64,000 nucleotides of DNA from an uncultured Acidobacteriota bacterium (lineage in GTDB: Bacteria > Acidobacteriota > Thermoanaerobaculia > Multivoradales > UBA5704): positions 81,663-145,662 of the forward strand of contig CAVXIG010000070.1 of assembly GCA_963761645.1 (NCBI GenBank), read 5' to 3'. The notes under the pieces are model-generated. The model saw nothing but the letters and a program-made list of their open reading frames with translations. It was not told the origin of the DNA and did no database searches. The position numbers were made by a program, and so were the translations under genes. Positions 1,311 to 43,423 of the stretch are shown piece by piece; positions within the stretch are counted from its first letter, which is position 1; every line of letters begins with the position of its first letter.

Positions 1311-3105
1311 CCTCCAGCTCCGCCCACCGCGCATACAGCTTCTCCACCGCCTGCCGGGCCTTCTCCAGCTCATTGCACCGCTCCTGGAGCGCGGCGGGAT
1401 CGGTGGCCACGGCCGGGTCCTCGACCCCGGCCTGGGCCGCGGCGAGACGGTTCTCGGCTTCCAGGATCGCCCCCTCCATCTTCTCCCACTCCTGCTTCTC
1501 CTTGTAGGAGAGACGCTTGGCCTCCTTGGCGGGCTTCGGCGCGGCCTTGGCGGCGGTGGCCTTCGACGGCGGCGGGGCGGACTGGCGGGCGGACTCCCAT
1601 TGGGCGTAGTCGGCGAAGTACTCCGAATTGCCCTGGCCGTCGAGAGCGAGGATCAGGGTGGAGACGCTCTCCAGCAGGAAACGGTCGTGGGTGACCAGCA
1701 CCAGCGCGCCCGGGAACTCCAGCAGGCTGTCCTCCAGCACCTCCAGCGTCGGGATGTCGAGGTCGTTCGTCGGCTCGTCGAGGATCAGCAGGTCCGCCGG
1801 CCGCAGCATCAGGCGGGCGATCAGGATGCGGGCCTGCTCGCCGCCGGAGAGCCGCGAGACGGGGGTGTCGAGCTGCTCGGTGCGGAAGAGGAACCGCTTG
1901 GCCCAGGCCGCGACGTGGATCGAGCGGTCCTGATACAGCACCGAATCCCCCTCCGGCGCCAGCGCCCGGCGCAGGCTCACCGTCTTGTCGAGCGTCTCGC
2001 GGCTCTGCTCGAAGCGGACGACGCGCAGCCACTCCGCCCGCTGGATCGTGCCGGCGTCCGGCTCGAGCGTGCCGTCGAGCATCGAGAGCAGGGTGGTCTT
2101 GCCGCTGCCGTTCGGCCCGAGCAGACCGAGGCGCATGCCGGGGGTGAGCTTGAGGTCGAGGTTCCTGACGATCCGCCGGCTGTCGAAGGACTTGGTCAGC
2201 CCCTCGGTGACCAGCAGCTTCTTGGTCTTGCGGTCGGAGGCGTTGAAGTCGATCCCGGCCCGGGCGTTGGCGGCGGCGCCGGTGCGCGCCTTCATCTCCT
2301 CCAGCTCGGCGATCATCCGGTTCGCCTCCTGGATGCGCCCCTTGGCCTTGGTCGTCCGCGCCTTGGCGCCGCGCTTCAGCCACTCCACCTCATTGCGGAC
2401 CTTGTTGGCGAGCGAGGCCTGGTACTCGGCCTGATTGCGGAGCACCTCGTCGCGCTTCTGCAGGAAATCGCTGTAGCTCCCCTGGGCCTGGAAGATCCCC
2501 TCCGGGTAGCGGCGGTCGAGCTCCAGCACGCGCGAGGTGACGTTCTCCAGGAAGTAGCGGTCGTGGCTGACCACGAGATAGGCCAGCGGCTCGCTCTGCA
2601 GCAGGTCCTCCAGCCAGAGGATGCCCTCGACGTCCAGATGGTTCGTGGGCTCGTCCATCAGCAGGATGTCGGGCTGCTGGACCAGGGCGCGGGCGATCGC
2701 CAGGCGCTTGCGCCACCCTCCCGAGAGGATGTCCACCGCCTGCTGCGGATCGTTGAACCCGGCCCGCCCGAGGGCGATGGCGACCCGCAGGTCCTTCTCG
2801 TAGTCCTCGGCATGATCGTCCGCCAGGGCCTCGACGAGGGTCTCCTCGACCGTCTTCCCCGTCGGGAACTCGGGGTCCTGGGGGACATACCCCATCCGGG
2901 TCCCCCGCCGGAGCGAGCGGGTCCCGGAATCCGGCTCCTCGATGCCGGCGAGGATCTTGAGCAGGGTGGACTTCCCCGAGCCGTTGGGACCGATGAGGCC
3001 GACGCGGTCCCCCTCCGAGATCCCGAAGGAGAGATCCTCGAACAGGGGGCGGGCGCCGAAGCCCTTGCCGATGGAGTCGCAACTCAGGAGGAGAGTGGGG
3101 GGCAT
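1297..3105 (-). CDS. ABC-F family ATP-binding protein (Uup-like)
   Basis: Two ABC domains (GPNGSGKS/LSGG/DEPTNHLD and GPNGSGKT/LSGGE/DEPTNDLD), no TM segments, Uup-type C-terminal coiled coil LSYKEKQEW...LYARWAELE. Confidence 0.9.
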   Translation of the reverse strand: MPPTLLLSCDSIGKGFGARPLFEDLSFGISEGDRVGLIGPNGSGKSTLLKILAGIEEPDSGTRSLRRGTRMGYVPQDPEFPTGKTVEETLVEALADDHAEDYEKDLRVAIALGRAGFNDPQQAVDILSGGWRKRLAIARALVQQPDILLMDEPTNHLDVEGILWLEDLLQSEPLAYLVVSHDRYFLENVTSRVLELDRRYPEGIFQAQGSYSDFLQKRDEVLRNQAEYQASLANKVRNEVEWLKRGAKARTTKAKGRIQEANRMIAELEEMKARTGAAANARAGIDFNASDRKTKKLLVTEGLTKSFDSRRIVRNLDLKLTPGMRLGLLGPNGSGKTTLLSMLDGTLEPDAGTIQRAEWLRVVRFEQSRETLDKTVSLRRALAPEGDSVLYQDRSIHVAAWAKRFLFRTEQLDTPVSRLSGGEQARILIARLMLRPADLLILDEPTNDLDIPTLEVLEDSLLEFPGALVLVTHDRFLLESVSTLILALDGQGNSEYFADYAQWESARQSAPPPSKATAAKAAPKPAKEAKRLSYKEKQEWEKMEGAILEAENRLAAAQAGVEDPAVATDPAALQERCNELEKARQAVEKLYARWAELEAKLK

Positions 3106-3353
3106 GAATCCTGGACTTCCTTCAAAAGCATTTCCTTTTCTGTCTTCCGCATCTTCTTGATCCGGCGCTCCTCGCGAAGGGCGAGACCCCAAGAGAGCAC
3201 CTCGCGCCACCAGACGAGCGTCACCGGCAGATGGGACCGCGTATACCGCGACGCCCGGCCCGCCCGGTGCTGCGCGAGCCGCCGTTCGACGTCCTTGGCG
3301 ATCCCGGTGTAGAGCGAGCCGTCGCCGCAGCGGAGGATGTAGATATAGGGCAC
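3084..3353 (-). CDS. Small GIY-YIG nuclease (YhbQ/UPF0213-like)
   Basis: YIYILRCGDGSLYTGIAKDVERRLAQHRAG..SRYT...A.REE..IKK; GTG start inferred. Confidence 0.85.
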   Translation of the reverse strand: MPYIYILRCGDGSLYTGIAKDVERRLAQHRAGRASRYTRSHLPVTLVWWREVLSWGLALREERRIKKMRKTEKEMLLKEVQDSCPPLSS

Positions 3354-3360
3354 GGGGGGA

Positions 3361-4515
3361 TTATAGAGTGGAACCCTCGAACGCCAGCGACCGTACCAGT
3401 TGCCGCTTCGCCATGGAGGCCGGTGTCCAGGCGATGAGGCGGTCGCGGAGCGCACGGGCGAGGCCGTTCTCCCACTGGGCCAGACGTCCCAGGCGGAGCG
3501 AGCCGAGGACGAACCCGTTGGCCCTTTGGATGCGCCGGGCCTCGTAGCGGCGCAGGGCGGCGGGGAAGTCCGGCTCGCCGCGAAGGCATTCCGCGAGCAC
3601 CACGGCGTCCTCGATGGCCTGGCCGGCTCCCTGGCCGAGATTCGGCGTCATCGGATGGGCGGCATCGCCGAGCAGGGCGATCCTCCCCTCTCCCCATTTC
3701 CGGACCGGCATCCGGTGGAGGATGTCGTTGCGCAGGATCGCCTCTTCGGGCGTCGCCTCCAGGAGGGCCTGGATCGGCGGGTGCCACCCCTTGAACAGTC
3801 GCAGGAGGGTGGCGCGGGATTGCCCGGGCTCGTCCCGGCCTCCCGGCGGGGTGTTGAGAGTGGTGAACCAGTAGATCCGCCCCTTCTCGATCGGCACGAT
3901 GCCGAAGCGCCGGCCAGGACCCCAGCTCTCCGAAACCTCCTGAGGCGCCGGATGAAAATTCTCCGGAGTGACCCCACGCCAGCTCACGTAACCCGCGTAG
4001 AGGGGATCGCCGTCGTCCAGGAGCCGCGCCCGGACGGCGGAGTGAATGCCGTCCGCTCCGATCAGGGCCGCGCCGGCGATCCGGCGGCCGTCCCCGAGCC
4101 GGACCTCGACGCCGTCCGCTCCCGTCTCATAGCCGACGACCTCGCTGCCGGTGTGCAGAACGCCGGGGCCGAGCGCCTCTAGCAGGATCTTCTGCAGCGT
4201 CGCGCGATGGATCGCGACCGAAGGAGCCCCCAGCAGGGTCTCGATCTCGCGGAAGTCGGTGCCGCCGAGAAGAGCGCCGTCCCATCGCCGGATGCTGGCG
4301 ATCTCGATCGGCCGGCCCGCCGCCATCACCGCCCGGTCGAGGCCGATGCGGCGCAACGCAAGAATGGCGTTCGCCTGGATCGTGATGCCGGCGCCGACCT
4401 CCCGGATTTCGGGAGCGCGCTCGTGAACCTGGACTGGGAATCCGGCCCGGTGCAGCGCGATCGCGGCGGCCAGCCCGCCGATGCCTCCGCCGGCGATAAG
4501 GATGCCCTCGTTCAT
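3361..4515 (-). CDS. FAD-dependent monooxygenase (class A flavoprotein hydroxylase)
   Basis: IAGGGIGGL, IGADGIHS, LLGDAAHPMTPNLGQGAGQAIED motifs. Confidence 0.92.
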   Translation of the reverse strand: MNEGILIAGGGIGGLAAAIALHRAGFPVQVHERAPEIREVGAGITIQANAILALRRIGLDRAVMAAGRPIEIASIRRWDGALLGGTDFREIETLLGAPSVAIHRATLQKILLEALGPGVLHTGSEVVGYETGADGVEVRLGDGRRIAGAALIGADGIHSAVRARLLDDGDPLYAGYVSWRGVTPENFHPAPQEVSESWGPGRRFGIVPIEKGRIYWFTTLNTPPGGRDEPGQSRATLLRLFKGWHPPIQALLEATPEEAILRNDILHRMPVRKWGEGRIALLGDAAHPMTPNLGQGAGQAIEDAVVLAECLRGEPDFPAALRRYEARRIQRANGFVLGSLRLGRLAQWENGLARALRDRLIAWTPASMAKRQLVRSLAFEGSTL

Positions 4516-4520
4516 CTGCC

Positions 4521-4976
4521 TCAGAGATCCGCCAGCACTTCGGCCGCGCTACCCTCGACTAGGGGAAGCAGACGGGAGTCCTCCAGCGCGGCAGTGCGAT
4601 GGCCGATGCCCGCCATGTACTCCGGATTGGAGGCAAACTCCATGAACGCCCCAACGCTGCTCTGCCGGACGAGCATAGCCGCATCCCACCGCTCGTCGCT
4701 CGGTCCGATCAGGAAGGCGCCGCCCTTGCCGAGGAAGAGCAACTCGCCGCCTGACTCCTTGAGGTGCGGCAGGGTGTGCTCGATATAGAGCCGGTAAGCC
4801 GCCTCACCGCTGATCGGGGCGGCGGGCGCGAGGTGCGGCGTGGCTGAGTAGTCGGCGACGGCCCGAAAACGCAAGAGATTGAGCATGACGATCTCGCCGG
4901 AGATGTTGCGAGTGAAGAACTCTCGCCCGGCCTCTTGGGTTGGCTCGAGATACGTCGGGCGCGTGCTGTCGGACAT
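4521..4976 (-). CDS. DUF1330-like protein
   Basis: IVMLNLLRFRAVADY...SGEAAYRLY...LIGPSDERWDA.MLV...Y.AG.GHR.AALEDSRL pattern; RBS GAAGGAG. Confidence 0.75.
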   Translation of the reverse strand: MSDSTRPTYLEPTQEAGREFFTRNISGEIVMLNLLRFRAVADYSATPHLAPAAPISGEAAYRLYIEHTLPHLKESGGELLFLGKGGAFLIGPSDERWDAAMLVRQSSVGAFMEFASNPEYMAGIGHRTAALEDSRLLPLVEGSAAEVLADL

Positions 4977-5019
4977 GGGTCTCTCCTTCGACTTGTCGCT
5001 GGCAAGCGACTTCCCCTGA

Positions 5020-5135
5020 GTAAGCCTTGATCGCTTCGATCACCTTCGCCCCCATGCCATGAAGATCCAGGATTTGGCTTTCCGTGAGGCGAGTGGCCTG
5101 GTCTAAGCGAGAGATTCCCGCGGAGGCGAGCTTTT
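5020..5135 (-). pseudogene. Fragment of an RNA polymerase alpha-CTD-like/HhH small protein
   Basis: LASAGISRLDQATRLTESQILDLHGMGAKVIEAIK resembles the alpha-CTD-like HhH motif; no clean gene boundaries. Confidence 0.4.
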
Positions 5136-5317
5136 TCTGGCGGCGCATCACCCTTGTCACTCTTCAAAGTCCTGAGGCGGCAATAAGATTTTTCGCCACT
5201 GTAGCGGACCGACCTCTCCAGCAAGCCACTTTGTCTCGCAGTCAAGTAGAATCATGTTCCCTGGCAGATTCTCAACCGCCTCCGAGAGAAGGATTCGAGC
5301 TCGCTCGCTATCGCCAA

Positions 5318-5724
5318 TCAGTCGATATGCTTCGGCAGGAAGATCTGATCGATCATATGGGATGGATGGGTGCTTACACCGATCGGTGGACGATTCGACT
5401 GGCTCAGCCGTGACACCAATGCAGGGTCGAGCGTACAAGTGACTCGTAGGCAGAACGCAAGCAAGGCAGCGAAATCTTGAGCAAGCGCTTCTGGGTGGAC
5501 CGCAATGAGGACCTCTCTTGAGCCATCTGGTCGAATGGCCTCTAGCTGCTGCTCGACCAGGTACACAGCGCTGGTCAAGTCAGACGATGAGGCCGCCGGA
5601 GCGTACGATCCACCAGCGTATCGATAGAATTGTGCCCTCGGTAGTTCGAGTAGAGCACGGTCCGCTGTTGGGTTCGGTACAGCTCGTCGGTCTTAAAGAA
5701 GCGACCAGTGATAATTTGGAGCAT
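5318..5724 (-). pseudogene. Truncated, frameshifted hypothetical cassette gene; possibly joined to an unrelated C-terminal fragment (5157-5345)
   Basis: ATG at 5724 gives MLQIITGRFFKTDELYRTQQRTVLYSNY..., continuing after a frame break as DLTSAVYLVEQQLEAIRPDG...; lower GC; starts about 55 bp after the attC. Confidence 0.45.
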
Positions 5725-5774
5725 CGGTGTTCAGTCATTGCATCAGGAAATCTCTGTCGTTCACGTAGGATGCG

Positions 5775-5845
5775 CGCTAACGACTCACGGCTCAACCGCC
5801 CGCCGCCGCTTTTGGCGAAGGGCCGGCTGCAGCTTGGCGTTAGCT
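5775..5845 (-). mobile_element. Integron attC recombination site (no integrase in window)
   Basis: Minus strand: AGCTAAC-GCCAA-GCTGCAGC-CGGCCC...GGGCG-GTTGAGC-CGTGAGTC-GTTAGCG; complementary R''/R' boxes and an L''/L' pair with an extrahelical G; lies at the 3' end of a low-GC ORF. Confidence 0.7.
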
Positions 5846-6387
5846 AGTTCCCTCGGCTCACGTGGAAAGAGCGCACCCTGACCCGCCGGACTGCCACCGA
5901 CGTGTGACTGTCGTGAAACCCCTGGTGAGGGCGACACTAGCCCAGCCAACTCGGCTTCGCGCCGAATTGTGTGGAACGTATGGTCGGCGGCAAGATAAAC
6001 CACCACTGGCTTCCCTGCCACGAGAAGGCGCCGGATGTTGAAAAGAGTGCCCTTGCTCTTCCCGTCCCAAAGCATGAAGCCGCATTCGGCGTCACCAGCC
6101 ATCGCGGCATCCTTAAGAGCGTAGTAATCGAAGCCACGCTGATTGGTAGCCGCAACCGACCGAACAGGCCACTGGCCAACGTTGTTCCGACAGTCAGCGT
6201 TTGTGCAGTAGACGGTTACGGAACGATAACCTTGCTCTGCGAGGTATGCCTGAACCGCACGATCACCGCCGTTGGCGTCACCGATGAGCACAGCATGATT
6301 GCGCCCGATAATTTTGTCCAACCGTCTACGGATCACAGCATTTAGCCGGGACAAACGTCGAGATCCTCCAATGAATACTACACTCAT
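5785..6387 (-). CDS. SLOG-superfamily (DprA/YspA/YAcAr-like) nucleotide-binding protein
   Basis: VFIGGSR...LIGDANGGDRAVQ...KD.AMA..AE.GFMLWDGKSKGTLFNI....GKPVVV matches the SLOG Rossmannoid pattern; ATG overlaps the upstream TGA. Confidence 0.75.
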   Translation of the reverse strand: MSVVFIGGSRRLSRLNAVIRRRLDKIIGRNHAVLIGDANGGDRAVQAYLAEQGYRSVTVYCTNADCRNNVGQWPVRSVAATNQRGFDYYALKDAAMAGDAECGFMLWDGKSKGTLFNIRRLLVAGKPVVVYLAADHTFHTIRREAELAGLVSPSPGVSRQSHVGGSPAGQGALFPREPRELANAKLQPALRQKRRRAVEP

Positions 6388-6979
6388 GACGAGCTCCGTG
6401 TTCGGGTCGGGCAGAAGGCGTAGACCTCGCGCACCGCCCCCTGGCTGGTGAGTGACGCGGTGACAGCATTCAGTGTTGCGCCAGACCTGTAGAGATCATC
6501 GATCAGGAGCACCGCTTTGCCTTGAAGATCGGTGGACGTGAGCTGTATGCGTCGGCGAGGAGCTTGAGTCGCTCGTGATAGTCGAACACGTCTTTGAGCT
6601 CTTTGGCAGTCGGCGCCTTCCGCACAGCGTCATAAACGGGAATCCCGAGATGTGTGCCAATCCCTTGCGCGATGCCCATTACAGGCTGCGACGAGCGGGA
6701 CCGACTTGGCGGTACTGGAACAATCGCTTGGACGGGCGGTCCCCATCCACGAATGAATTCGGTCGCGGCCAAGACGAGATCAGCAAGCGCATCCCCTTGC
6801 CTTTTGTATTTCAAAAGGTAGAGGAGATCCCCGACAGGAGTTCTTACGGTGTTGAACAGGGGATGCCCGTACTCATCGTAGCCGACGAAGTCGCTGCTCT
6901 TGGTGTGATAGTCGAGAACGTACCCATCCTTCCAAGAGCCAGGTATCTTCATGGGGTTCGTCTGAACTGGAACTGGCAT
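6384..6979 (-). CDS. ComF-like phosphoribosyltransferase (frame break near 6535)
   Basis: LLYLLKYK, IVPVPPS; after frame correction the PRPP-binding loop VLLIDDLYRSGATL; TGA coupled to the SLOG ATG. Confidence 0.8.
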
Positions 6980-7093
6980 TCGCTGCTCCTCTTCCACTCA
7001 ACTCATGGCATAGGAAGTATACCAATTTGCCGAGGGCGGCCGGGGAACGCAGGCCCGGGGACTATCCCCCGGATAGAGCCCTCCACCGGGAGG

Positions 7094-10000
7094 TCATCCT
7101 GGGCTCAGAATTTTTCCCGCCCGGAGGAACCAGAGCTCGAACCGCGGCGCCTCCTCCATCTCCAGGGCCTCCCGCATGGCCCTTCCGTAGACCGCCCCTT
7201 GCGGCGCGTAGACGGCCGCGCGGGTGCGGATCTCCTCGGCCGTCTCCACCTCGTCGGTCTTGTAGTCGGCGATCACGATCCGGCCGTCCTCCGGATCGCG
7301 GTAGAGGAGGTCGATCGCGCCGCTGACGATGCCGACGGGCGAATGCTCCCCCTCCCCCGGCGGCAGGAGGACGGGCAGCTCGCGGGCGAGGACGTGATCC
7401 TTCAGCTTCCGCATGCGCTTGAGCAGGGGGCCGGCGGCGAAGGTCTCCAGGAGGGTGGCGGCCAGCGGGAGCGCGCGGTCGAGCTCGTCCCCTTCGACGA
7501 GGGCGGCGAGGTAGGCGGGGAGCAGGGCGCGCTGGCGCTCCAGCTCCTTGGCCGGCGCGGCGCCGAGGTCCCACTCCTCCAGGGCGCGGTGGATGGCCCC
7601 GCCGGCGGCCATGGCGGCGGCGCGGTCCTTGGCGCGATGGGCGGAGCGGCGGCCTTTCCGCTCGACGATCTCGGTCTGTTTTTCGGCCTGCTGCTCGCGC
7701 AGGAGGGCGTGGGCCTCCTCGGAGGCGGCGCCGCCGAAGGAGCGCTCCATGCGCAGGGCGGCGCGCTCGCGCTCGGCGCGCAGGGTGGCGGAGACAAAGG
7801 CGATCTCCTCCGGCCCGGGCAGCGAGGGGCGCTCGGGCTCGGCGGCGAGGCCGAGGTCGGCCGGCGGGCGCAGGCCGGGGAACTTCCAGAGCGCGCCGGT
7901 CGGGTCCGGGAAGGACCAGGAAGGCGCCGCTGCTCGCCGAGCCGAGGGCCTCTTCCCAGAGATCGGGAAGGCTCGGCGGCAGGTCGCCGCGCGAGAGCAG
8001 GAGATCCAGCGGATTGTGGGCCTGCTCCCAGGTCAGCGGCTTCGTCGCCTCGGGCCAGCGGCCGGCGAGCACGAGGCGGTCCTTGGCGCGGGTCATCGCC
8101 ACGTAGAGCAGGCGCACCCGCTCGGCGGCCTCGACCACGCGGCGGTCGGCCTCGATGCGATCGAAGCCGGGAGTCGGCGCGCCGAACAGGCGGTATTCGA
8201 AGCCGTCGCCCCAGCGGCCGGCCTCGGTGCGGGCGCCGCGGTCCCCCGGCGGCGGCTTGTGGAGCTGGAGCAGGTAGACGTGCTCGAAGTCGAGCCCCTT
8301 GGCGCCATGGATGGTGAGCACCTGGACCGCGTCCTCGGAGCTGTCCTTGGGGCGCCCCTCCTCGGCCTCGCGGGCCTCGGACACGCTGCGCCGCAGGGCG
8401 CGCAGGATGGCGGTGGCGTCGCCGCCGCTCTCCTCGACGGCGGCGAGCACCTGGCGGAAGAAGCGCTCCAGGTTGGCCAGCCGGTAGGGGCCGAGGTAGC
8501 GGGCCGCCTCGGTGGCCTCGATCAGGGTGAGCCGGCGCAGGCGCTCGACGAAGACGTCCGCCGGCTCGGTCTCGAAGGAGCGGCGGAGGACGGCCAGATG
8601 CTCGACGGCGGCCAGCAGGTTGCGGTCCCAGCCGCGCACGCGCTCGATCCCCGGCACGTCTTTCGGCACCACGCGGACCGCCCCCTCGATCGCCCGCCGC
8701 AGGGCCGCGAGGGCGTCGGGAGCGGGCGAGCGCAGCTCGGTCATCAGCCGCGGGAACTGCCGGTTCCAGAGCGGGATCAGGGCGGCGTCGGGCACCCCCA
8801 CGGTCGAGGAGCGGAGCACGGTGAGCAGCGCCAGGTGGTCGCCCGGATCGAGCACCGAGCGCACCAGGGCGGCGGCCTCGATGACCTCGCGGCGGCGGTA
8901 GTACTGCTTGTCGCGGCCGACGGCGAAGGGGACGCGGGCGCGGCGGAAGGCCTCCAGATAGAGGTCGAGGTCGCCGATGCCGCGCAGCAGGACGGCGATC
9001 TCGCTCCAGGCGACCCCGTGCTCGGCGTGGAGGGCGCGGATGTCTTCGGCGAGGGCGGCGGCCTCGATCTCGGTGGCCTCGGCGAGCGCGGTCTTCCAGG
9101 GCTCGCGGCTGCCGCTTCCAGGAGACCCAGTGCTCGACGGGGGCCCAGCCGGCCGACGGCCACTCGCGGCGGAAGCCGGGGTCCTCCAGCCGCCGGTCGC
9201 AGGCGAAGAGGGGCTCGAAGGGGGGCTGGACCCCGTCCCGCGAGCGTCATCACCGGCTCGATCACCCGGGCGACTTCCTCCAGGATCACCGGCACGGAAC
9301 GGAAGTTGAGGGCGAGCGACATCACCTCCCCCCCGGCCTCCCGCACCAGGTTCGACGAAGCCGTCGTAGGCCCGCAGGTCGGCGTTGCGCCAGCCGTAGA
9401 TCGACTGCTTGGGGTCGCCGACCAGGAAGAGGCCGGGGCGCTCCTCCGACCGGGCCGTCGAGGGCGATCCAGCGCAGGAGGTCGCACTGGATGCGGTCGG
9501 TGTCCTGGAACTCGTCGACCAGGAGCTGATCGATCCGCCGCCGCACCTGCCGCCGCACCTCGGGCTGCTCGGCGAGGAGCGACTCGGCGCCGGCGAGCAG
9601 GAAGTCGAAGGTGGCGATGCCGCGGGAGCGCAGCTCGCGCTCGACCCGGCCGAGCAGGGGGATCAGCGCGCGGCGGCCGTGCTCCATCAGCTCGGGATCG
9701 AAGCGGGTGAGCTGCTCGAGGAGCTGGACGAGGCCGGCGGCGGCGGCGGCCAGCTCGACCGCCACCTCGCCGAAGAGGGCGGCTTCGGTCGCCTCCAGCT
9801 TCCGCGCGCCAGTTCTTCAGATGATCGACGAGGTTCTCGGGGAGCAGGTCCGTCGCGCCATTCCTTCAGGAGTCGGCGACCGCGCGCCGTCTTCCTCCAG
9901 CCGGCCGAGCAGAGCGCGCGAGGGCGTCGGCGATCTTCGTGGCGTTGGGCACCCGCACCCCCTTGCGGAGGCGGGGCGCGATCAGCCGTGGACCGCTCCG

Positions 10001-34874: not shown

Positions 34875-36910
<2,036 letters not shown>

Positions 36911-38276: not shown

Positions 38277-38378
38277 CTGAGAAGCTCTGTCAAAGCCTCT
38301 TTCGTAGGGAGGGGCTTGTGGGCTTGTCCCCCCGACCCGATCGGCCACCCCTCCCCCGGTTGCGGCCACCGATAGCAC

Positions 38379-38609
38379 GGCTGCGCCCACTGATCGCGCG
38401 GTAGCGCCCAAGAGAGGGAAGGCACCGCCCCCTGGAGGAACGAAAGCGCCCTCTCTTTTCCCCTTCGCGCCCTCTCTCACCCCGACAGCGCCCAGGCGAG
38501 GGATGCCCGCGCCCTCTCTTACCCCGGCAGCGCCCTCTGGAGGGACGGCTCCGCCCAAGTGAGGGACGACAGCGGGAAGCAGAGGGCGCACACCGCCCTC
38601 TCTTGGGAT
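38379..38609. repeat. Degenerate 21-bp tandem array with GCGCCC core, about 11 units
   Basis: ggtagcgcccaagagagggaa / gaaagcgccctctcttttccc / ggcagcgccctctggagggac etc. in strict 21-nt register. Confidence 0.8.
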
Positions 38610-38709
38610 CGAGCACGGTATGAGAGGGCGCGGCCGGAAAACCGTTCGGCGCCATCACGGAAGCGAGGGGCAGAGACAGCGGCCGGGTGGGCGCACCCGC
38701 GGATGGAAG

Positions 38710-38898
38710 GGGCGCAGACGGAGAGCCCGCAAGCGCGGACGGAGAGCCAATGGGCGCAGACAGAGAGCCCGCAAGCGCAGACGGAGAGCCAATGGGCGCA
38801 GACAGAGAGCCCGCAAGCGCAGACAGAGAGCCCGTGGGCGAAGACGGAGAGCCTGTGGGCGAAGACGGAGAGCCCGTGGGCGAAGACGGAGAGCCCGT
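38710..38898. repeat. 21-bp tandem array, 9 well-conserved units (GGGCGCAGACGGAGAGCCCGT-like)
   Basis: Directly visible; part has a 42-bp alternating superperiod; more degenerate units extend leftwards. Confidence 0.92.
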
Positions 38899-38907
38899 GG
38901 GGCGCGG

Positions 38908-39656: not shown

Positions 39657-41135
39657 ATGCCACGAGAAGCCCTGCCGGACCTGAGCATCGCCCTGACCTT
39701 CCTCCGTTCCGGCCAGGGGTGGAGCCAGGCGGATCTGGGGAAAGCCGCGGGGATCTCTCTGAAGATCCTCAACGACTACGAGCGGGGGCGGAAGACGCTC
39801 ACCCGCGAGCGGCTGGAGTACCTCGCCGCCTTCCTGGGAGTGCCGCCCGAGAGGATCGACGCCACCCTCGCCCTCCTGGCCGCCAACCGGGCGTCCAGCT
39901 TGGCGCGGGATTCGGAGACGCACCGCCGGATCGAGACCGTCGCCGCCCGGATCGGAAACCTGATGGCCGCCTCCGCCCGCTCGTCCCTCTCGCTGCTGAC
40001 CCTGGAGGGGGAGGCGCTCCAGGCCCGGCAGAAGGCCGGGCTCCTCTGGGACCGCCTGCGGCGGCGCGCGCCCGCGGAACGGCGGAGCCTGGTGAGCCGC
40101 GGGCTCAGGTTCCGGACCTGGGCGCTCTGCGAGCGGGTGGCCGCCGAGAGCATCCGGAAAGCGCCGAACCACCCCCGGGAAGCGTTGGAGCTGGCCGAGC
40201 TGGCCCTCCTGATCGCCGAGCAACTCCCCGGAGAACGGACTTGGAGCCTGCGGCTCCAGGGCTATGCCTGGGCCCATGTGAGCAATGCCCGGCGCGTTTG
40301 CAACGACCTGAACGGGGCCGAGGACGCCATGGTCCGGGCTCGAAAGCTCTGGGAGGCCGGGGAGGGCGGAGACCCGGGATTCCTGAATGAGGCGTGGTTG
40401 CCGGGGCTTGAGGCGGCCCTTCGCAGAAGCCAGCGGCGGTTCCCAGAGGCTCTGAAGCGGATTGACGAGGCCCTTGCGCTTGACCCGGGAGAGCTGAGAG
40501 GGGAGATCCTCCTCAACAAGGCACGGATCCACGAAACTCTGGGCGATCCGGAATCCTCGACGGCGGCTCTTCTGGAAGCCGCCTCTTTGATTGATCCCCT
40601 CAAAGAGCCTCGGAGCGCATTGGTTCTGCGATTCAACCTAATCGTGGATCTGTGTCATTTGGACCGAGCTGCGGAAGCACAGTTGAGACTTCCCGAAGTG
40701 CGGGCACTGGCCGAGCGGCTGGGTGAGGAACTGGACCTGACGCGCGTCGTCTGGCTGGAGGGCAAGGTTACCGCCGGGCTCGGACAGCTCGCGGAGGCCC
40801 GAAGGGCCTTCGAGCAAGTGCGGCGGGTGTTCGGACGCCGCGAGCTGACCTTCGACTATGCGCTGGTGAGCCTGGAGCTGGCCGTGCTCCTCCTGGAACA
40901 GGGGCATACCACCGAGGTGGGGGCGCTGGCGGAGGAGATGCTGCGGATTTTCCGGACCCAGAAGATCGAGCGGGAGGCCCTGGTGGCGCTCCACCTCTTC
41001 TGCGACGCCGCCCACCGGGAGACCGCCACGGTGGGCCTGGCCCGGCAGCTCGTCCGCTTCCTCCACCGGGCCCAGTACGATCCCGGGCTGCGGTTCGCGG
41101 GAACGGTGAAGGACCTTATGGCAGCAGAAACGTAG
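39657..41135 (+). CDS. XRE-family HTH + TPR-repeat regulator (492 aa)
   Basis: RBS AAGGAG; LRSGQGWSQADLGKAAGIS...YERG (HTH_3), then TPR-like helices (AWAHVSNARRV..DL.GAE, RRFPEAL..ID.AL, WLEGKV.AGLG...EA..AF). Confidence 0.85.
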   Translation: MPREALPDLSIALTFLRSGQGWSQADLGKAAGISLKILNDYERGRKTLTRERLEYLAAFLGVPPERIDATLALLAANRASSLARDSETHRRIETVAARIGNLMAASARSSLSLLTLEGEALQARQKAGLLWDRLRRRAPAERRSLVSRGLRFRTWALCERVAAESIRKAPNHPREALELAELALLIAEQLPGERTWSLRLQGYAWAHVSNARRVCNDLNGAEDAMVRARKLWEAGEGGDPGFLNEAWLPGLEAALRRSQRRFPEALKRIDEALALDPGELRGEILLNKARIHETLGDPESSTAALLEAASLIDPLKEPRSALVLRFNLIVDLCHLDRAAEAQLRLPEVRALAERLGEELDLTRVVWLEGKVTAGLGQLAEARRAFEQVRRVFGRRELTFDYALVSLELAVLLLEQGHTTEVGALAEEMLRIFRTQKIEREALVALHLFCDAAHRETATVGLARQLVRFLHRAQYDPGLRFAGTVKDLMAAET

Positions 41136-41179: not shown

Positions 41180-41449
41180 CGTAGGGGAGGGGCTTGTCCC
41201 CTCCCTCGCCCCGGAGGGGCGGAATTTGATTAGCCTGGCGCTTTAGCGCCAGGTAGGCCGCCCGAAAATCCCAACCCGCCCTGAAGGGGCGGAACCCAAC
41301 GTTCCTGGTACTAATGGACCGTTGATGAAAGGCACCGCCCCCTCGGGGCGGATATGGGGGGGTGGGGAATGCTCACCTGGCGCTAAAGCGCCAGGCTAAT
41401 CAAATTCCGCCCCTCTGGGGCGAGGGAGGGGACAAGCCCCTCCCCTACG
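41180..41449. repeat. Nested REP doublet (REPIN-like) with 75-bp inverted arms
   Basis: 41180-41254 is the near-perfect reverse complement of 41375-41449; outer GTAGGGGAGGGGCTTGTCCCCTCCC GTAG-type REP plus inner CCTGGCGCTTTAGCGCCAGG hairpin. Confidence 0.88.
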
Positions 41450-41493
41450 AATACGAAAAAGTTCCGCGGGCCGGGGGTGAGGCTTCGGAGGAT

Positions 41494-41836
41494 CTAATGG
41501 CTCGCCGAGCACCGGCCCCAAGGCTCGAGCCCGCAACCCGCCTCGGCGTCCTGGGTCGGAGCGCTCGCCCCACACCGTCCCAACGGATCGATCCCGCAGC
41601 CCTCCTTGGTCGGCATGGGTCGGAGCGCTCGCCCCACACTGGCCCCAGGGGTTGATCGTGCAGCCGGCCTTGGCCAAACCGTCCACGGCGAGACGCCACA
41701 GGGGGGCGAACACGCCGGCGGCGCTCCCGGCGGCGGGACGGGACGCCGCCTCCGGACGGGCTTTCGCGGCGAACGCGGAGGTTCCGAGGCTGAGCGCGAG
41801 GAGGATCAGGACGGCTGCTGTGCGGAGGATTCGCAT
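41494..41836 (-). CDS. Secreted peptide precursor with three Cys-bracketed repeats (about 113 aa after removing one extra base near 41615)
   Basis: RBS AAGGAG; signal peptide MRILRTAAVLILLALSLGTSAFA; cores KAGCTINPWGQC, KEGCGIDPLGRC, EAGCGLEPWGRC; TAG at 41494. Confidence 0.75.
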
Positions 41837-41974
41837 GACCGGCTCCTTTCGGGAGGCGGCTCGCCCGCGGTCTTCATTGGCCGCGAAGCCGGCCTCTCCA
41901 GATGAATCGTGCGCGAAACAGGGTGGACGGACCCGCCGTCCGAGCGATGTGGCGGCACTGAACAGGAGGATACG

Positions 41975-42754
41975 TTGGAAAACGCCGACAAGAACGATCC
42001 CGACGCGCGGCTGGCCCTGGTCTTGTTCCGCAACTCCCTGCTTCTGGATCAGGCCCGGTTCGCCGCCGCCGCCCGCATCGCGCCGAGCCAGCTCTCGGTC
42101 TACGAGCGGGGGGAACGGGGTACGCCGAGGGAGGTCCTGGAAAAAGCCGCCGCGGCGGCGGGTTTCCCCGTCCACCTGCTCGACTCCCTGCTCTGGGGGT
42201 TCCGCTCCTACCGGGCCGCGGCGCGGGGGAGGTCCCGCGCCAATCGCGCCTTGGCGGACGGCGTCGCCGTCGAGCTGATCGCGCTGGTGCGGTCGGCGAT
42301 CGACATCGCCCTCGAACCCCTCGCGGCGGCGCCCGGGGAGGGAACCGCCCCGCCGGACGCCGGGGACCGCGAGGCGGCGGCGGCGCTCTGGGCTTCCATG
42401 GCGGAGTGCACCCCGGCGGAACGCCGGATGCTGGTCGAGGAGCTGGACGAATACCAGAGTTGGGCCCTCTGCGAGCAGGTGGCCGCCGAGAGCGCCCGCA
42501 AGGCGCCGGACCATCCCGGAGAGGCGCTGGAGCTGGCCGCGCTGGCCCTGCTCATCGCGGAGCGGATGGCCGGGGAATCCGAGTGGAGCCTGCGGGTCCA
42601 GGGGTACGCCTGGGCCCACGTCGGCAACGCCCGCCGAGCCTGCGACGACCCGGCGGGCGCCGGGGAGGCGTTCCGCCGCGCCCGGCAGCTCTGGGAGGCC
42701 GGCGCCGCCGCGGATCCGGGGCTCCTGAGCGAGGCATGGCGCGCCTGGGCCTGA
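41975..42754 (+). CDS. XRE-HTH + partial TPR regulator, short paralog of 39657-41135
   Basis: AGGAGG + TTG start; LDQARFAAAARIAPSQLSVYERG; WALCEQVAAES.RKAP.HP.EALELA.LALLIAE...GYAWAHV.NARR nearly identical to the long paralog. Confidence 0.8.
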   Translation: MENADKNDPDARLALVLFRNSLLLDQARFAAAARIAPSQLSVYERGERGTPREVLEKAAAAAGFPVHLLDSLLWGFRSYRAAARGRSRANRALADGVAVELIALVRSAIDIALEPLAAAPGEGTAPPDAGDREAAAALWASMAECTPAERRMLVEELDEYQSWALCEQVAAESARKAPDHPGEALELAALALLIAERMAGESEWSLRVQGYAWAHVGNARRACDDPAGAGEAFRRARQLWEAGAAADPGLLSEAWRAWA

Positions 42755-42830: not shown

Positions 42831-43423
42831 TTGGACGCAAGCTGTACAGCACCGGGTTCCAATGCATCGATCGACCAGGAAGAGCTTCTGATGACGCGGG
42901 TAGCCAAAGGGGATCGCGAGGCATTCACAGAGCTTTTCGACCGTCTGGCCCCCTGCATCCTGGGGGTCCTGGTCCGCCTCTTGCGCCAGCGCGGCCTGGC
43001 CGAGGAGGCTCTCCAGGAGACTTTTTTACAAGCTGGTTGCAAGCTGGCAACTACCGGCCCGAGGCGGGGTCCCCCCGCGCGTGGCTCCTGAACATCGCGC
43101 GGTCGCGCGGGCTTGACGCCCTGCGGCGGGAGGGTTCGCGGCGGCGGCGGGAGGACGCGGTCTTTGTCCAGGAGCCGAAAGCCCAGGAAGCCGTGGGCGT
43201 CTCCCGTCTGGAGGCGCTCGAGCGGCAGGCCCGGGTCCGTGAGGAGCTCGGCCATCTGGCGCCGGCGCAGCAGGAATGCCTGACCCTCGCCTTCGTCGAG
43301 GAGCTCCCCCACACCGCCATCGCCCGGAGGCTGTCGATGCCGCTGGGATCGGTGAAGTCGCGGGTGCGGCTGGGGATGCGGAAGCTGGGGCGGATGCTGG
43401 AGGCGGCGCCGGCGCGGGCCTGA
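42831..43423 (+). CDS. ECF sigma factor, SigK-like (frame break near 43035)
   Basis: GGAGG + TTG; RVA.GDREAF.ELFDR, AEEALQETFLQ.., WLL.IARSR.LD.LR, PLGSVKSRVRLGMRKL. Confidence 0.85.

Follow-up and report, generated by a model that had tools for sequence, protein, structure and literature searches.

A DPxG-repeat secreted peptide family beside TPR regulators in Thermoanaerobaculia, and its possible likeness to RRNPP cassettes

Introduction

The closest known systems to the locus described here are NprR-NprX and PlcR-PapR, members of the RRNPP group of Firmicutes, in which a receptor with an HTH and a TPR domain is encoded adjacent to a propeptide that is exported by Sec. A convergent gene pair is unusual for RRNPP cassettes. 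Propeptides that carry several copies of a pheromone are known in Rap, AimR, PlcR and NprR systems (PMC11343458; PMC9765709). Surveys of RRNPP systems frame cytoplasmic, TPR-sensed signalling by ribosomal peptides as a speciality of the Firmicutes (PMC10075063; PMC9765709; 10.1101/2021.08.18.456871). A search of openly available full texts found no paper on RRNPP systems in Acidobacteria or Acidobacteriota. The literature searched also contained nothing relevant on peptide quorum sensing in Thermoanaerobaculia, nothing describing a system of a soluble anti-sigma factor with TPR and ECF partners and a peptide signal, and nothing describing peptide-based quorum sensing in diderms with TPR and XRE proteins.

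Presented here is a small peptide gene in the window, i.e., the whole stretch of 64,000 nt that was analysed, from an uncultured member of the Thermoanaerobaculia. The gene belongs to an undescribed family of DPxG-repeat secreted peptides of this class.

Results

A gene for a secreted precursor with three cores

The peptide gene is on the minus strand and is interrupted by a one-base break. Its parts are as follows.

41494..41836, minus strand: precursor gene, 113 codons when read through the break; intact orthologues are P0005, P0020 and P0025
41768-41836, minus strand: signal peptide, with predicted cleavage after AFA
41672-41767, minus strand: pro-region with the amphipathic segment FAPLWRLAVDGL
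41636-41671, minus strand: core 1, KAGCTINPWGQC
41614..41617, minus strand: site of one surplus base, CATG here against a single CTG or CCG codon in relatives; an indel error of the assembly is the most likely cause
41572-41607, minus strand: core 2, KEGCGIDPLGRC
41509-41544, minus strand: core 3, EAGCGLEPWGRC
41494-41496, minus strand: stop codon TAG

Frame A, from the ATG at 41836, reads MRILRTAAVLILLALSLGTSAFA followed by AKARPEAASRPAAGSAAGVFAPLWRLAVDGLAKAGCTINPWGQCGASAPT (AKARPE...VFAPLWRLAVDGLAKAGCTINPWGQCGASAPT) and then runs out of register, and frame B (41637-41494, minus strand) ends in ...PTKEGCGIDPLGRCGASAPTQDAEAGCGLEPWGRCSASH and the stop codon. The source of the three cores is a 63-nt tandem repeat, for which TRF gives a period of 64 and 2.6 copies. 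The start-to-start spacings of the cores are 63 and 64 nt, thus exactly one surplus base is present between cores 1 and 2. The read-through product P0003, in which the CATG at 41617-41614 is taken as a single step (H), has 113 residues. Each core follows the 12-residue pattern [K/E]-x-G-C-x-[IL]-[DNE]-P-[WL]-G-x-C, and the cores are joined by GASAPT linkers.

The secreted multi-core precursor proposed in the initial annotation is borne out by this reading, with a signal peptide, a Trp-containing spacer and three G-C-x-[IL]-[DNE]-P-x-G-x-C cores between 41836 and 41494. The duplicated DNA linker that it had pointed to is also present; the 24-nt sequence GTGTGGGGCGAGCGCTCCGACCCA has exactly two copies (41552-41575 and 41616-41639), and 100 shuffles gave 0 matches. 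There is very little doubt about the gene, its signal-peptide features and its repeats. An AAGGAG Shine-Dalgarno box precedes the ATG at 41836 and is kept in an upstream alignment of four orthologous loci, and a GCGGCCATGGAGRCC-like element approximately 30-45 nt upstream of the peptide start codon is common to four orthologous loci. Judged from its reading frames, the gene is most likely functional and the frame broken in the assembly only. A reading of K-A-G-C as a lipobox was rejected, since the signal peptide does not end with this motif and a Lys occupies position -3.

Distribution of the peptide family and conservation of its cores

A six-frame translation of the whole 6.14-Mb assembly was scanned with the strict core motif. 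All 7 occurrences are at three paralogous loci, thus the motif is not a product of chance. These loci are the window gene, a paralogue on C34 with four cores, and one on C38 with two cores and a third unit that has no Cys; both paralogues are intact. With a profile made from the database homologues, ten family loci are detected in the genome, and the two frames of the window gene match it with E values of 4e-16 and 3e-11. Seven of the ten loci are Cys-less and display the units EGNTIDPHG, GSSIDPSG, GPGLDPAG and GAGIDPNG, i.e., the pattern G-x-x-[IL]-D-P-x-G.

Homologues with conserved cores are also found outside this genome: there are the intact orthologues, and family matches are present in all 24 of the other genomes of the genus that were searched, at 5-30 per genome. 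Of 1856 candidates in the protein database, 212 are relatives at E<=1e-3. None of them bears a name other than ‘hypothetical’; where a source is named, it is a Thermoanaerobaculia MAG. Across 301 sampled Acidobacteriota genomes, where 14 candidates were scored per genome so that weak members could be missed, matches at E<=1e-6 are found only here and in one other genome of the same taxonomic family.

The 120 homologues listed of the 212 show a common plan: a signal-peptide-like N-terminus is present in 117, and in 116 a Trp precedes the first core by no more than 18 residues. These 120 proteins contain 324 cores with an invariant G-C...P.G.C, mostly 2-4 per protein, with the consensus [KDE]-[NEA]-G-C-[SGQT]-[ILVAM]-D-P-[DNSFWL]-G-[R..]-C; their C-termini lie 2-4 residues past the last Cys or are exactly ...DPNG. 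The mature part of family members is 70-100 residues long and has 2-5 possible disulfide loops. The window gene has the features by which the family is defined, namely a signal peptide, a Trp-containing amphipathic segment and 2-5 C-terminal [KDE]-x-G-x-x-x-D-P-x-G units, and the existence of the family is as secure as that of the gene.

In the initial annotation the cores were described as C-x7-C loops. The loop is not the defining feature of the family, as the closing Cys is absent from several cores in the G005 and G006 orthologues and seven paralogues have no Cys. Because the closing Cys is dispensable and Cys-less paralogues exist, the conserved unit is G-C/x-x-x-D-P-x-G. On the sequences compared, the C-x7-C loop is thus a subfamily feature, and x-x-D-P-x-G is what the family as a whole conserves. 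The number of cores in orthologues of the window gene is two, three or four, a variation that unequal exchange in the 63-nt repeat would predict, and the cores themselves arose by a 63-nt tandem duplication.

No Pfam or NCBIfam model matched the peptides above threshold. A DUF6799 match (18.3 bits, with a cut-off of 26.8) and sub-threshold matches to INTAP and rubredoxin-like models are attributed to chance, and the single match in a PDB profile search with the family, an S-layer protein at E 0.55, was dismissed. A search of the ESM Atlas with the peptide family returned unnamed Acidobacteriota clusters only, with scores of 0.88-0.91. A heuristic scan of the genome showed a 96-aa ORF with a signal peptide, ending ...AVDPNG...TMDPNG, next to a regulator paralogue on C29 (43230-44303, minus strand). 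This ORF is missed by the family profile, thus the peptide family is wider than the profile detects.

Regulator genes at the window locus

The features that surround the peptide gene are listed below.

39657..41135, plus strand: full-length regulator of 492 aa, the candidate receptor, convergent with the peptide gene and matching Pfam HTH_3 and TPR models
41180..41254, unstranded: left arm of an inverted repeat, 75 nt, with a terminator-like hairpin at 41206-41222 (plus strand) behind the receptor gene
41375..41449, unstranded: right arm of the inverted repeat, 75 nt, with a terminator-like hairpin at 41423-41407 (minus strand) behind the peptide gene
41909..42754, plus strand: short HTH paralogue, divergent from the peptide gene, with the HTH and the first helical half and without the C-terminal TPR

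The HTH_3 domain of the full-length regulator is at residues 20-65 (E 9e-10, above the Pfam cut-off). An AF2 model (pLDDT 89.9, pTM 0.73) displays an XRE-type HTH at 8-60, linker helices up to residue 135 and a TPR superhelix at approximately 139-472, and neither the architecture nor the fold is seriously in question. The top structural matches of the model include Rap and NprR; a match to the TPR fold is generic. Orthologues of the regulator are 62-89% identical and are annotated as ‘XRE-family HTH / TPR’.

The short paralogue aligns with receptor positions 7-248 (phmmer E 5e-51) and matches Pfam HTH_3/HTH_31. It may start at GTG 41909 or at TTG 41975; the TTG is preceded by AGGAGG, and from the sequence it is the more likely start. 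Upstream DNA of approximately 140 bp is shared by the peptide gene and the short paralogue and holds the conserved GCGGCCATGGAGRCC-like box. The 281-aa short HTH gene was considered as a truncated pseudogene, but intact short paralogues of 260 and 269 aa are found at the same place in G005 and G003, and this was rejected. The three-gene layout recurs at two other Cys-loop loci of the genome and in G005 and G003.

The other window neighbours are an ECF sigma factor, a glucan phosphorylase, a histidine kinase, PBP1A and CheR. Whether the ECF sigma gene at 42891-43423 belongs to the module was also considered. The filtered ORFs next to the short HTH gene in G005 and G003 include no recognisable sigma gene, and the one in the window is probably outside the module.

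The peptide gene is located 358 bp from the receptor stop codon. The gap between the two convergent genes is filled by the two 75-nt arms, which are 99% complementary, and in the orthologous loci of other genomes it measures only about 40-190 bp. The 75-nt repeat is dispersed, with 29 blastn matches in the genome, 7 of them near full length. In soil metagenome runs it has a very high summed contig depth, and most of the contigs from these runs that match the window cover dispersed 75-nt repeats only. A different type of repeat is found approximately 750 bp upstream of the receptor gene, at 38357-38901, where there are non-coding tandem arrays with periods of 21/42 nt. One array spans 38710-38901 (9.1 copies, 80-90% matches). 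In translation the arrays give a false ‘QTESP’ repeat within a long ORF that is itself spurious.

Pairing of peptide and regulator genes

All ten family loci of the genome are found within 3 kb, and mostly within 150 bp, of a member of the regulator family. In five other genomes of the genus, 92 peptide loci were counted (102 listed rows minus 10 that are second stretches of genes already counted) and were compared with the 150 regulator matches listed out of 301. With this list, the nearest regulator is at most 500 bp away for 65 of the 92 loci and at most 1 kb away for 74; the other 18 have none listed at that distance. Of the DNA in the five genomes, only 1.2% is so close to a listed match, and the adjacency itself can be taken as established. 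The option of a pheromone precursor, raised in the initial annotation, gains support from this near-obligate adjacency to TPR regulators. Seen from the regulator side the pairing is not universal: only about a third of the 33 regulator-family loci in the genome have a recognisable peptide gene (10 by HMM). An independent heuristic places a peptide gene at 7 of the 33, one of which is outside the 10 HMM loci, compared with 10 of 600 random places.

Important is the orientation of the paired genes. The nearest regulator was classed as HTH-type when its match starts at model position 30 or lower. Convergent pairs comprise 26 HTH-type and 3 non-HTH regulators. Where both genes are on the same strand with the peptide gene first, there are 0 HTH-type and 38 non-HTH regulators, and with the receptor gene first, 0 and 2. 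Divergent pairs comprise 4 HTH-type and 1 non-HTH. Orientation thus separates the HTH-type from the non-HTH cassettes.

Many of the non-HTH regulator paralogues begin with an H-x3-C-x2-C motif, and Pfam zf-HC2 was confirmed on one of them. On C5, TPR genes with this motif follow ECF sigma genes, with the stop and start codons overlapping. With zf-HC2 heads in some paralogues and HTH heads in others, one TPR scaffold carries either output, both beside a DPxG peptide gene. To this picture the window adds a Cys-loop subfamily that is paired with an HTH-headed receptor, the convergent three-gene layout and the orientation rule.

Two other loci of this genome (G000) may be described. Locus L014 (C5:28500-40500, positions 2464-8820) has three ECF sigma genes intermixed with three TPR paralogues, two of which have the H-x3-C-x2-C head and come directly after a sigma gene, with overlap; the third follows another TPR gene. 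A single-unit DPxG peptide gene is at approximately 5199-5432, and the locus represents the anti-sigma version of the cassette. At L012 (C49:43500-53500, positions 7238-9928), genes for a CHAT/caspase-like protease and a DUF7379 protein are located approximately 1.4 kb from a peptide/HTH-TPR cassette.

Discussion

Possible roles of the peptide

By analogy with the RRNPP systems, the gene may encode the propeptide of a peptide/receptor cassette, with cores that re-enter the cell and bind the adjacent TPR domain; this is the preferred reading, though a tentative one, at somewhat below an even chance. The propeptide would be exported by Sec and its signal peptide cut after AFA, and in the periplasm the Cys pairs may close 9-residue loops. 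Processing would then yield core peptides built around x-x-D-P-x-G, which would accumulate outside the cell and be taken up again. Inside, they would bind the concave face of the TPR domain and alter DNA binding by the HTH, and the TPR-less paralogue could serve as a ligand-blind partner or as a competitor at the shared promoter. In sister cassettes the same TPR scaffold has a zf-HC2 head and stands behind an ECF sigma gene, thus in these cassettes a sigma factor would be controlled by a peptide of the same type.

Several points weigh against such a cycle. The regulator shows no sequence relationship to RRNPP receptors, its fold match is generic, and the gene pair is convergent. Many regulator-family loci are without a recognisable peptide gene, and 18 of the 92 peptide loci are without a listed regulator nearby. 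The host is a diderm, therefore the peptide would have to cross the outer membrane twice. Neither a protease nor an importer gene was seen linked to the cassette at the window locus or at the other loci scanned. In favour of uptake, the genome has one gene for an Opp/Dpp-type binding protein (PF00496). A complex prediction with the TPR part of the receptor (136-492) and the mature peptide (41-113), run without controls, gave no answer (score 0.00) and weighs neither way. It should also be noted that the whole mature product of 90 residues could act outside the cell, which is a point against signalling.

An extracellular function is the main rival to signalling, and one that we consider unlikely but far from negligible. 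In this case the product would act outside the cell, whole or as loops, as an antimicrobial, adhesive, metal- or calcium-binding or matrix component, and the HTH-TPR neighbours would only regulate transcription in response to another ligand. The length of the mature part, 70-100 residues with 2-5 possible disulfide loops, is consistent with this, as is a Sec signal peptide without a linked importer or protease. The generic nature of the TPR fold match and the two thirds of regulator-family loci that are without a recognisable peptide gene point the same way. However, no immunity, transporter or toxin-type gene is linked to the peptide genes at the loci scanned, and x-x-D-P-x-G is retained in the many paralogues and some orthologues that do without the Cys residues. 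In addition, there are tens of diverged cassettes per genome, each with its own regulator paralogue, and one sensor scaffold is wired to two different output domains; this resembles ligand-receptor pairs more than a structural product. Nothing specific was found in favour of the metal-binder or toxin roles named in the initial annotation.

The one-base frame break

The frameshift could be real, the gene being a recent pseudogene in this strain that yields only core 1 and an out-of-frame tail; this is improbable. In its favour, the extra base is outside any long homopolymer, and no sequencing run containing the strain was found, the best run sharing 0.27 of the sampled words and none of the matching runs listed being of RNA. 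On the other hand, past the break the second frame retains cores 2 and 3 perfectly, down to the stop codon, and frame changes are frequent elsewhere in the assembly. The essential genes secA (C5:19417-21779), carB (C7:3460-6599) and two uvrA genes (C20:11605-14357 and C30:109070-111812) of G000 are in 3, 5, and 2 and 2 frame pieces, respectively, or approximately 8 frame changes per 11 kb. These genes were used because rpoB was not found in the genome, whose assembly is incomplete (78.8%). The assembly has approximately one indel error per 1-1.5 kb of coding sequence, and in light of the breaks in secA, carB and uvrA, the break in the peptide gene is, from the sequence, very probably assembly noise.

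The ECF sigma gene at 42891-43423, 1.2 kb away, is itself split near 43037-43091, probably by another assembly indel: one frame has positions 1-38 of Sigma70_r2, and a second frame has positions 39-69 together with region 4. In a PAS-HisKA histidine kinase gene at 35429-36676 (minus strand), the HATPase_c match breaks off once 25 of its 111 profile positions are covered, a sign of a probable further break in frame.

Intact relatives agree with an artefact, as the initial annotation had supposed, and also show what the site should read. The closest database protein, P0005 (113 aa, 96% identical), has T-L-P-T across the break site, P0020 has T-P-P-T and P0025 has I-P-P-T. A contig from run X4 (2027 nt, approximately 93% identical) covers 41426-42150 with 52 differences. 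The contig is one base shorter at 41615 and also differs by T>G at 41616, and therefore reads T-P-P-T. Judging by P0005 and the X4 contig, relatives have L or P at the break and not the Met (TMPT) that was originally read. The extra C that had been placed near 41615 can be kept in part: the surplus base is within the CATG at 41617-41614, but it is not necessarily a C. Small genes such as this one vanish from the gene calls of indel-rich long-read assemblies, and in this assembly the indels will depress both the gene calls and the estimate of completeness (78.8%).

Modified cores

In cyanobactin precursors of the PatE type, repeated cores are separated by conserved linkers, and a leader is recognised by cytoplasmic enzymes of the same cluster. 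The window gene shares with them the repeated cores and conserved linkers; it differs in having a Sec signal peptide and no nearby enzyme instead of a leader and enzymes of the same cluster. A multi-core RiPP precursor, in which enzymes encoded elsewhere modify the cores beyond disulfides before release, is very improbable: the slightly varied repeats with conserved linkers, and a first Cys that is invariant in each core and better kept than the second, are what such a precursor would show, but Cys-less paralogues exist, and the N-terminus is a classical Sec signal peptide, therefore the peptide would leave the cytoplasm unmodified. The initial annotation, which had likened the gene to RiPP precursors, had itself seen no modifying enzyme adjacent, and this is correct for the window neighbours. 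No radical-SAM, YcaO, LanM-type or cyclase gene is found beside the window locus, nor among 50 candidate ORFs at nine other loci of this genome (seven family and two receptor loci). At the Cys-loop loci on C34 and C38, the scan covered the peptide and adjacent regulator genes only. Together with the signal peptide, these results make a RiPP unlikely.

Comparison with known systems

Beyond the single locus, signalling may be a property of the Thermoanaerobaculia as a diderm soil lineage, having RRNPP logic and having arisen independently of the Firmicutes, with tens of cassettes per genome, each composed of a secreted DPxG-core propeptide and its own cytoplasmic TPR sensor. The sensor would have an HTH, as in the window with its Cys-looped cores, or a zinc anti-sigma head that binds an ECF sigma factor. 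This broader proposal is put forward still more tentatively than the reading of the window gene as a propeptide. If the cassettes do signal, communication of the RRNPP type would extend to an abundant, mostly uncultured soil phylum that has an outer membrane, and one type of sensor would be seen to control a repressor-type HTH in some cassettes and a sigma/anti-sigma switch in others. The cassettes would also provide dozens of peptide/regulator pairs from nature, which may be orthogonal.

Descent from RRNPP proteins was assessed by sequence. None of the RRNPP-specific Pfam models matched the regulator, which matched only HTH_3/HTH_31 and generic TPR models, and its profile found only XRE HTH proteins in the PDB, with no Rap, NprR, PlcR, Rgg, PrgX or AimR at E<=1. 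RRNPP membership by descent thus fails the sequence test, and the resemblance is one of logic. The window regulator has an N-terminal HTH effector, as do NprR, PlcR, Rgg, PrgX and AimR, and an adjacent small gene for an exported propeptide, as in RRNPP(A) systems, is present at the window locus. Differences from the RRNPP group are found in the host, a diderm Acidobacterium rather than a member of the Firmicutes, and in the layout, a convergent pair with a third, TPR-less HTH paralogue. The peptides differ as well; the predicted cores in the window are 12-residue, Cys-bracketed DPxG units, whereas RRNPP peptides are linear and have 5-10 residues.

The Rap-Phr systems of phages phi3T and phi105 offer a second comparison. 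They are reported to carry several similar pheromone copies produced by tandem duplication (PMC11343458), and the cores of the window gene are likewise tandem copies. A non-HTH output is found in Rap and likewise in the sister cassettes described here, which have an anti-sigma head. Rap is a phosphatase or anti-activator, and the alternative head here is a zf-HC2 anti-sigma domain. The Rap-Phr systems and the window cassette thus share repeated peptides, and differ in peptide chemistry and in phylum.
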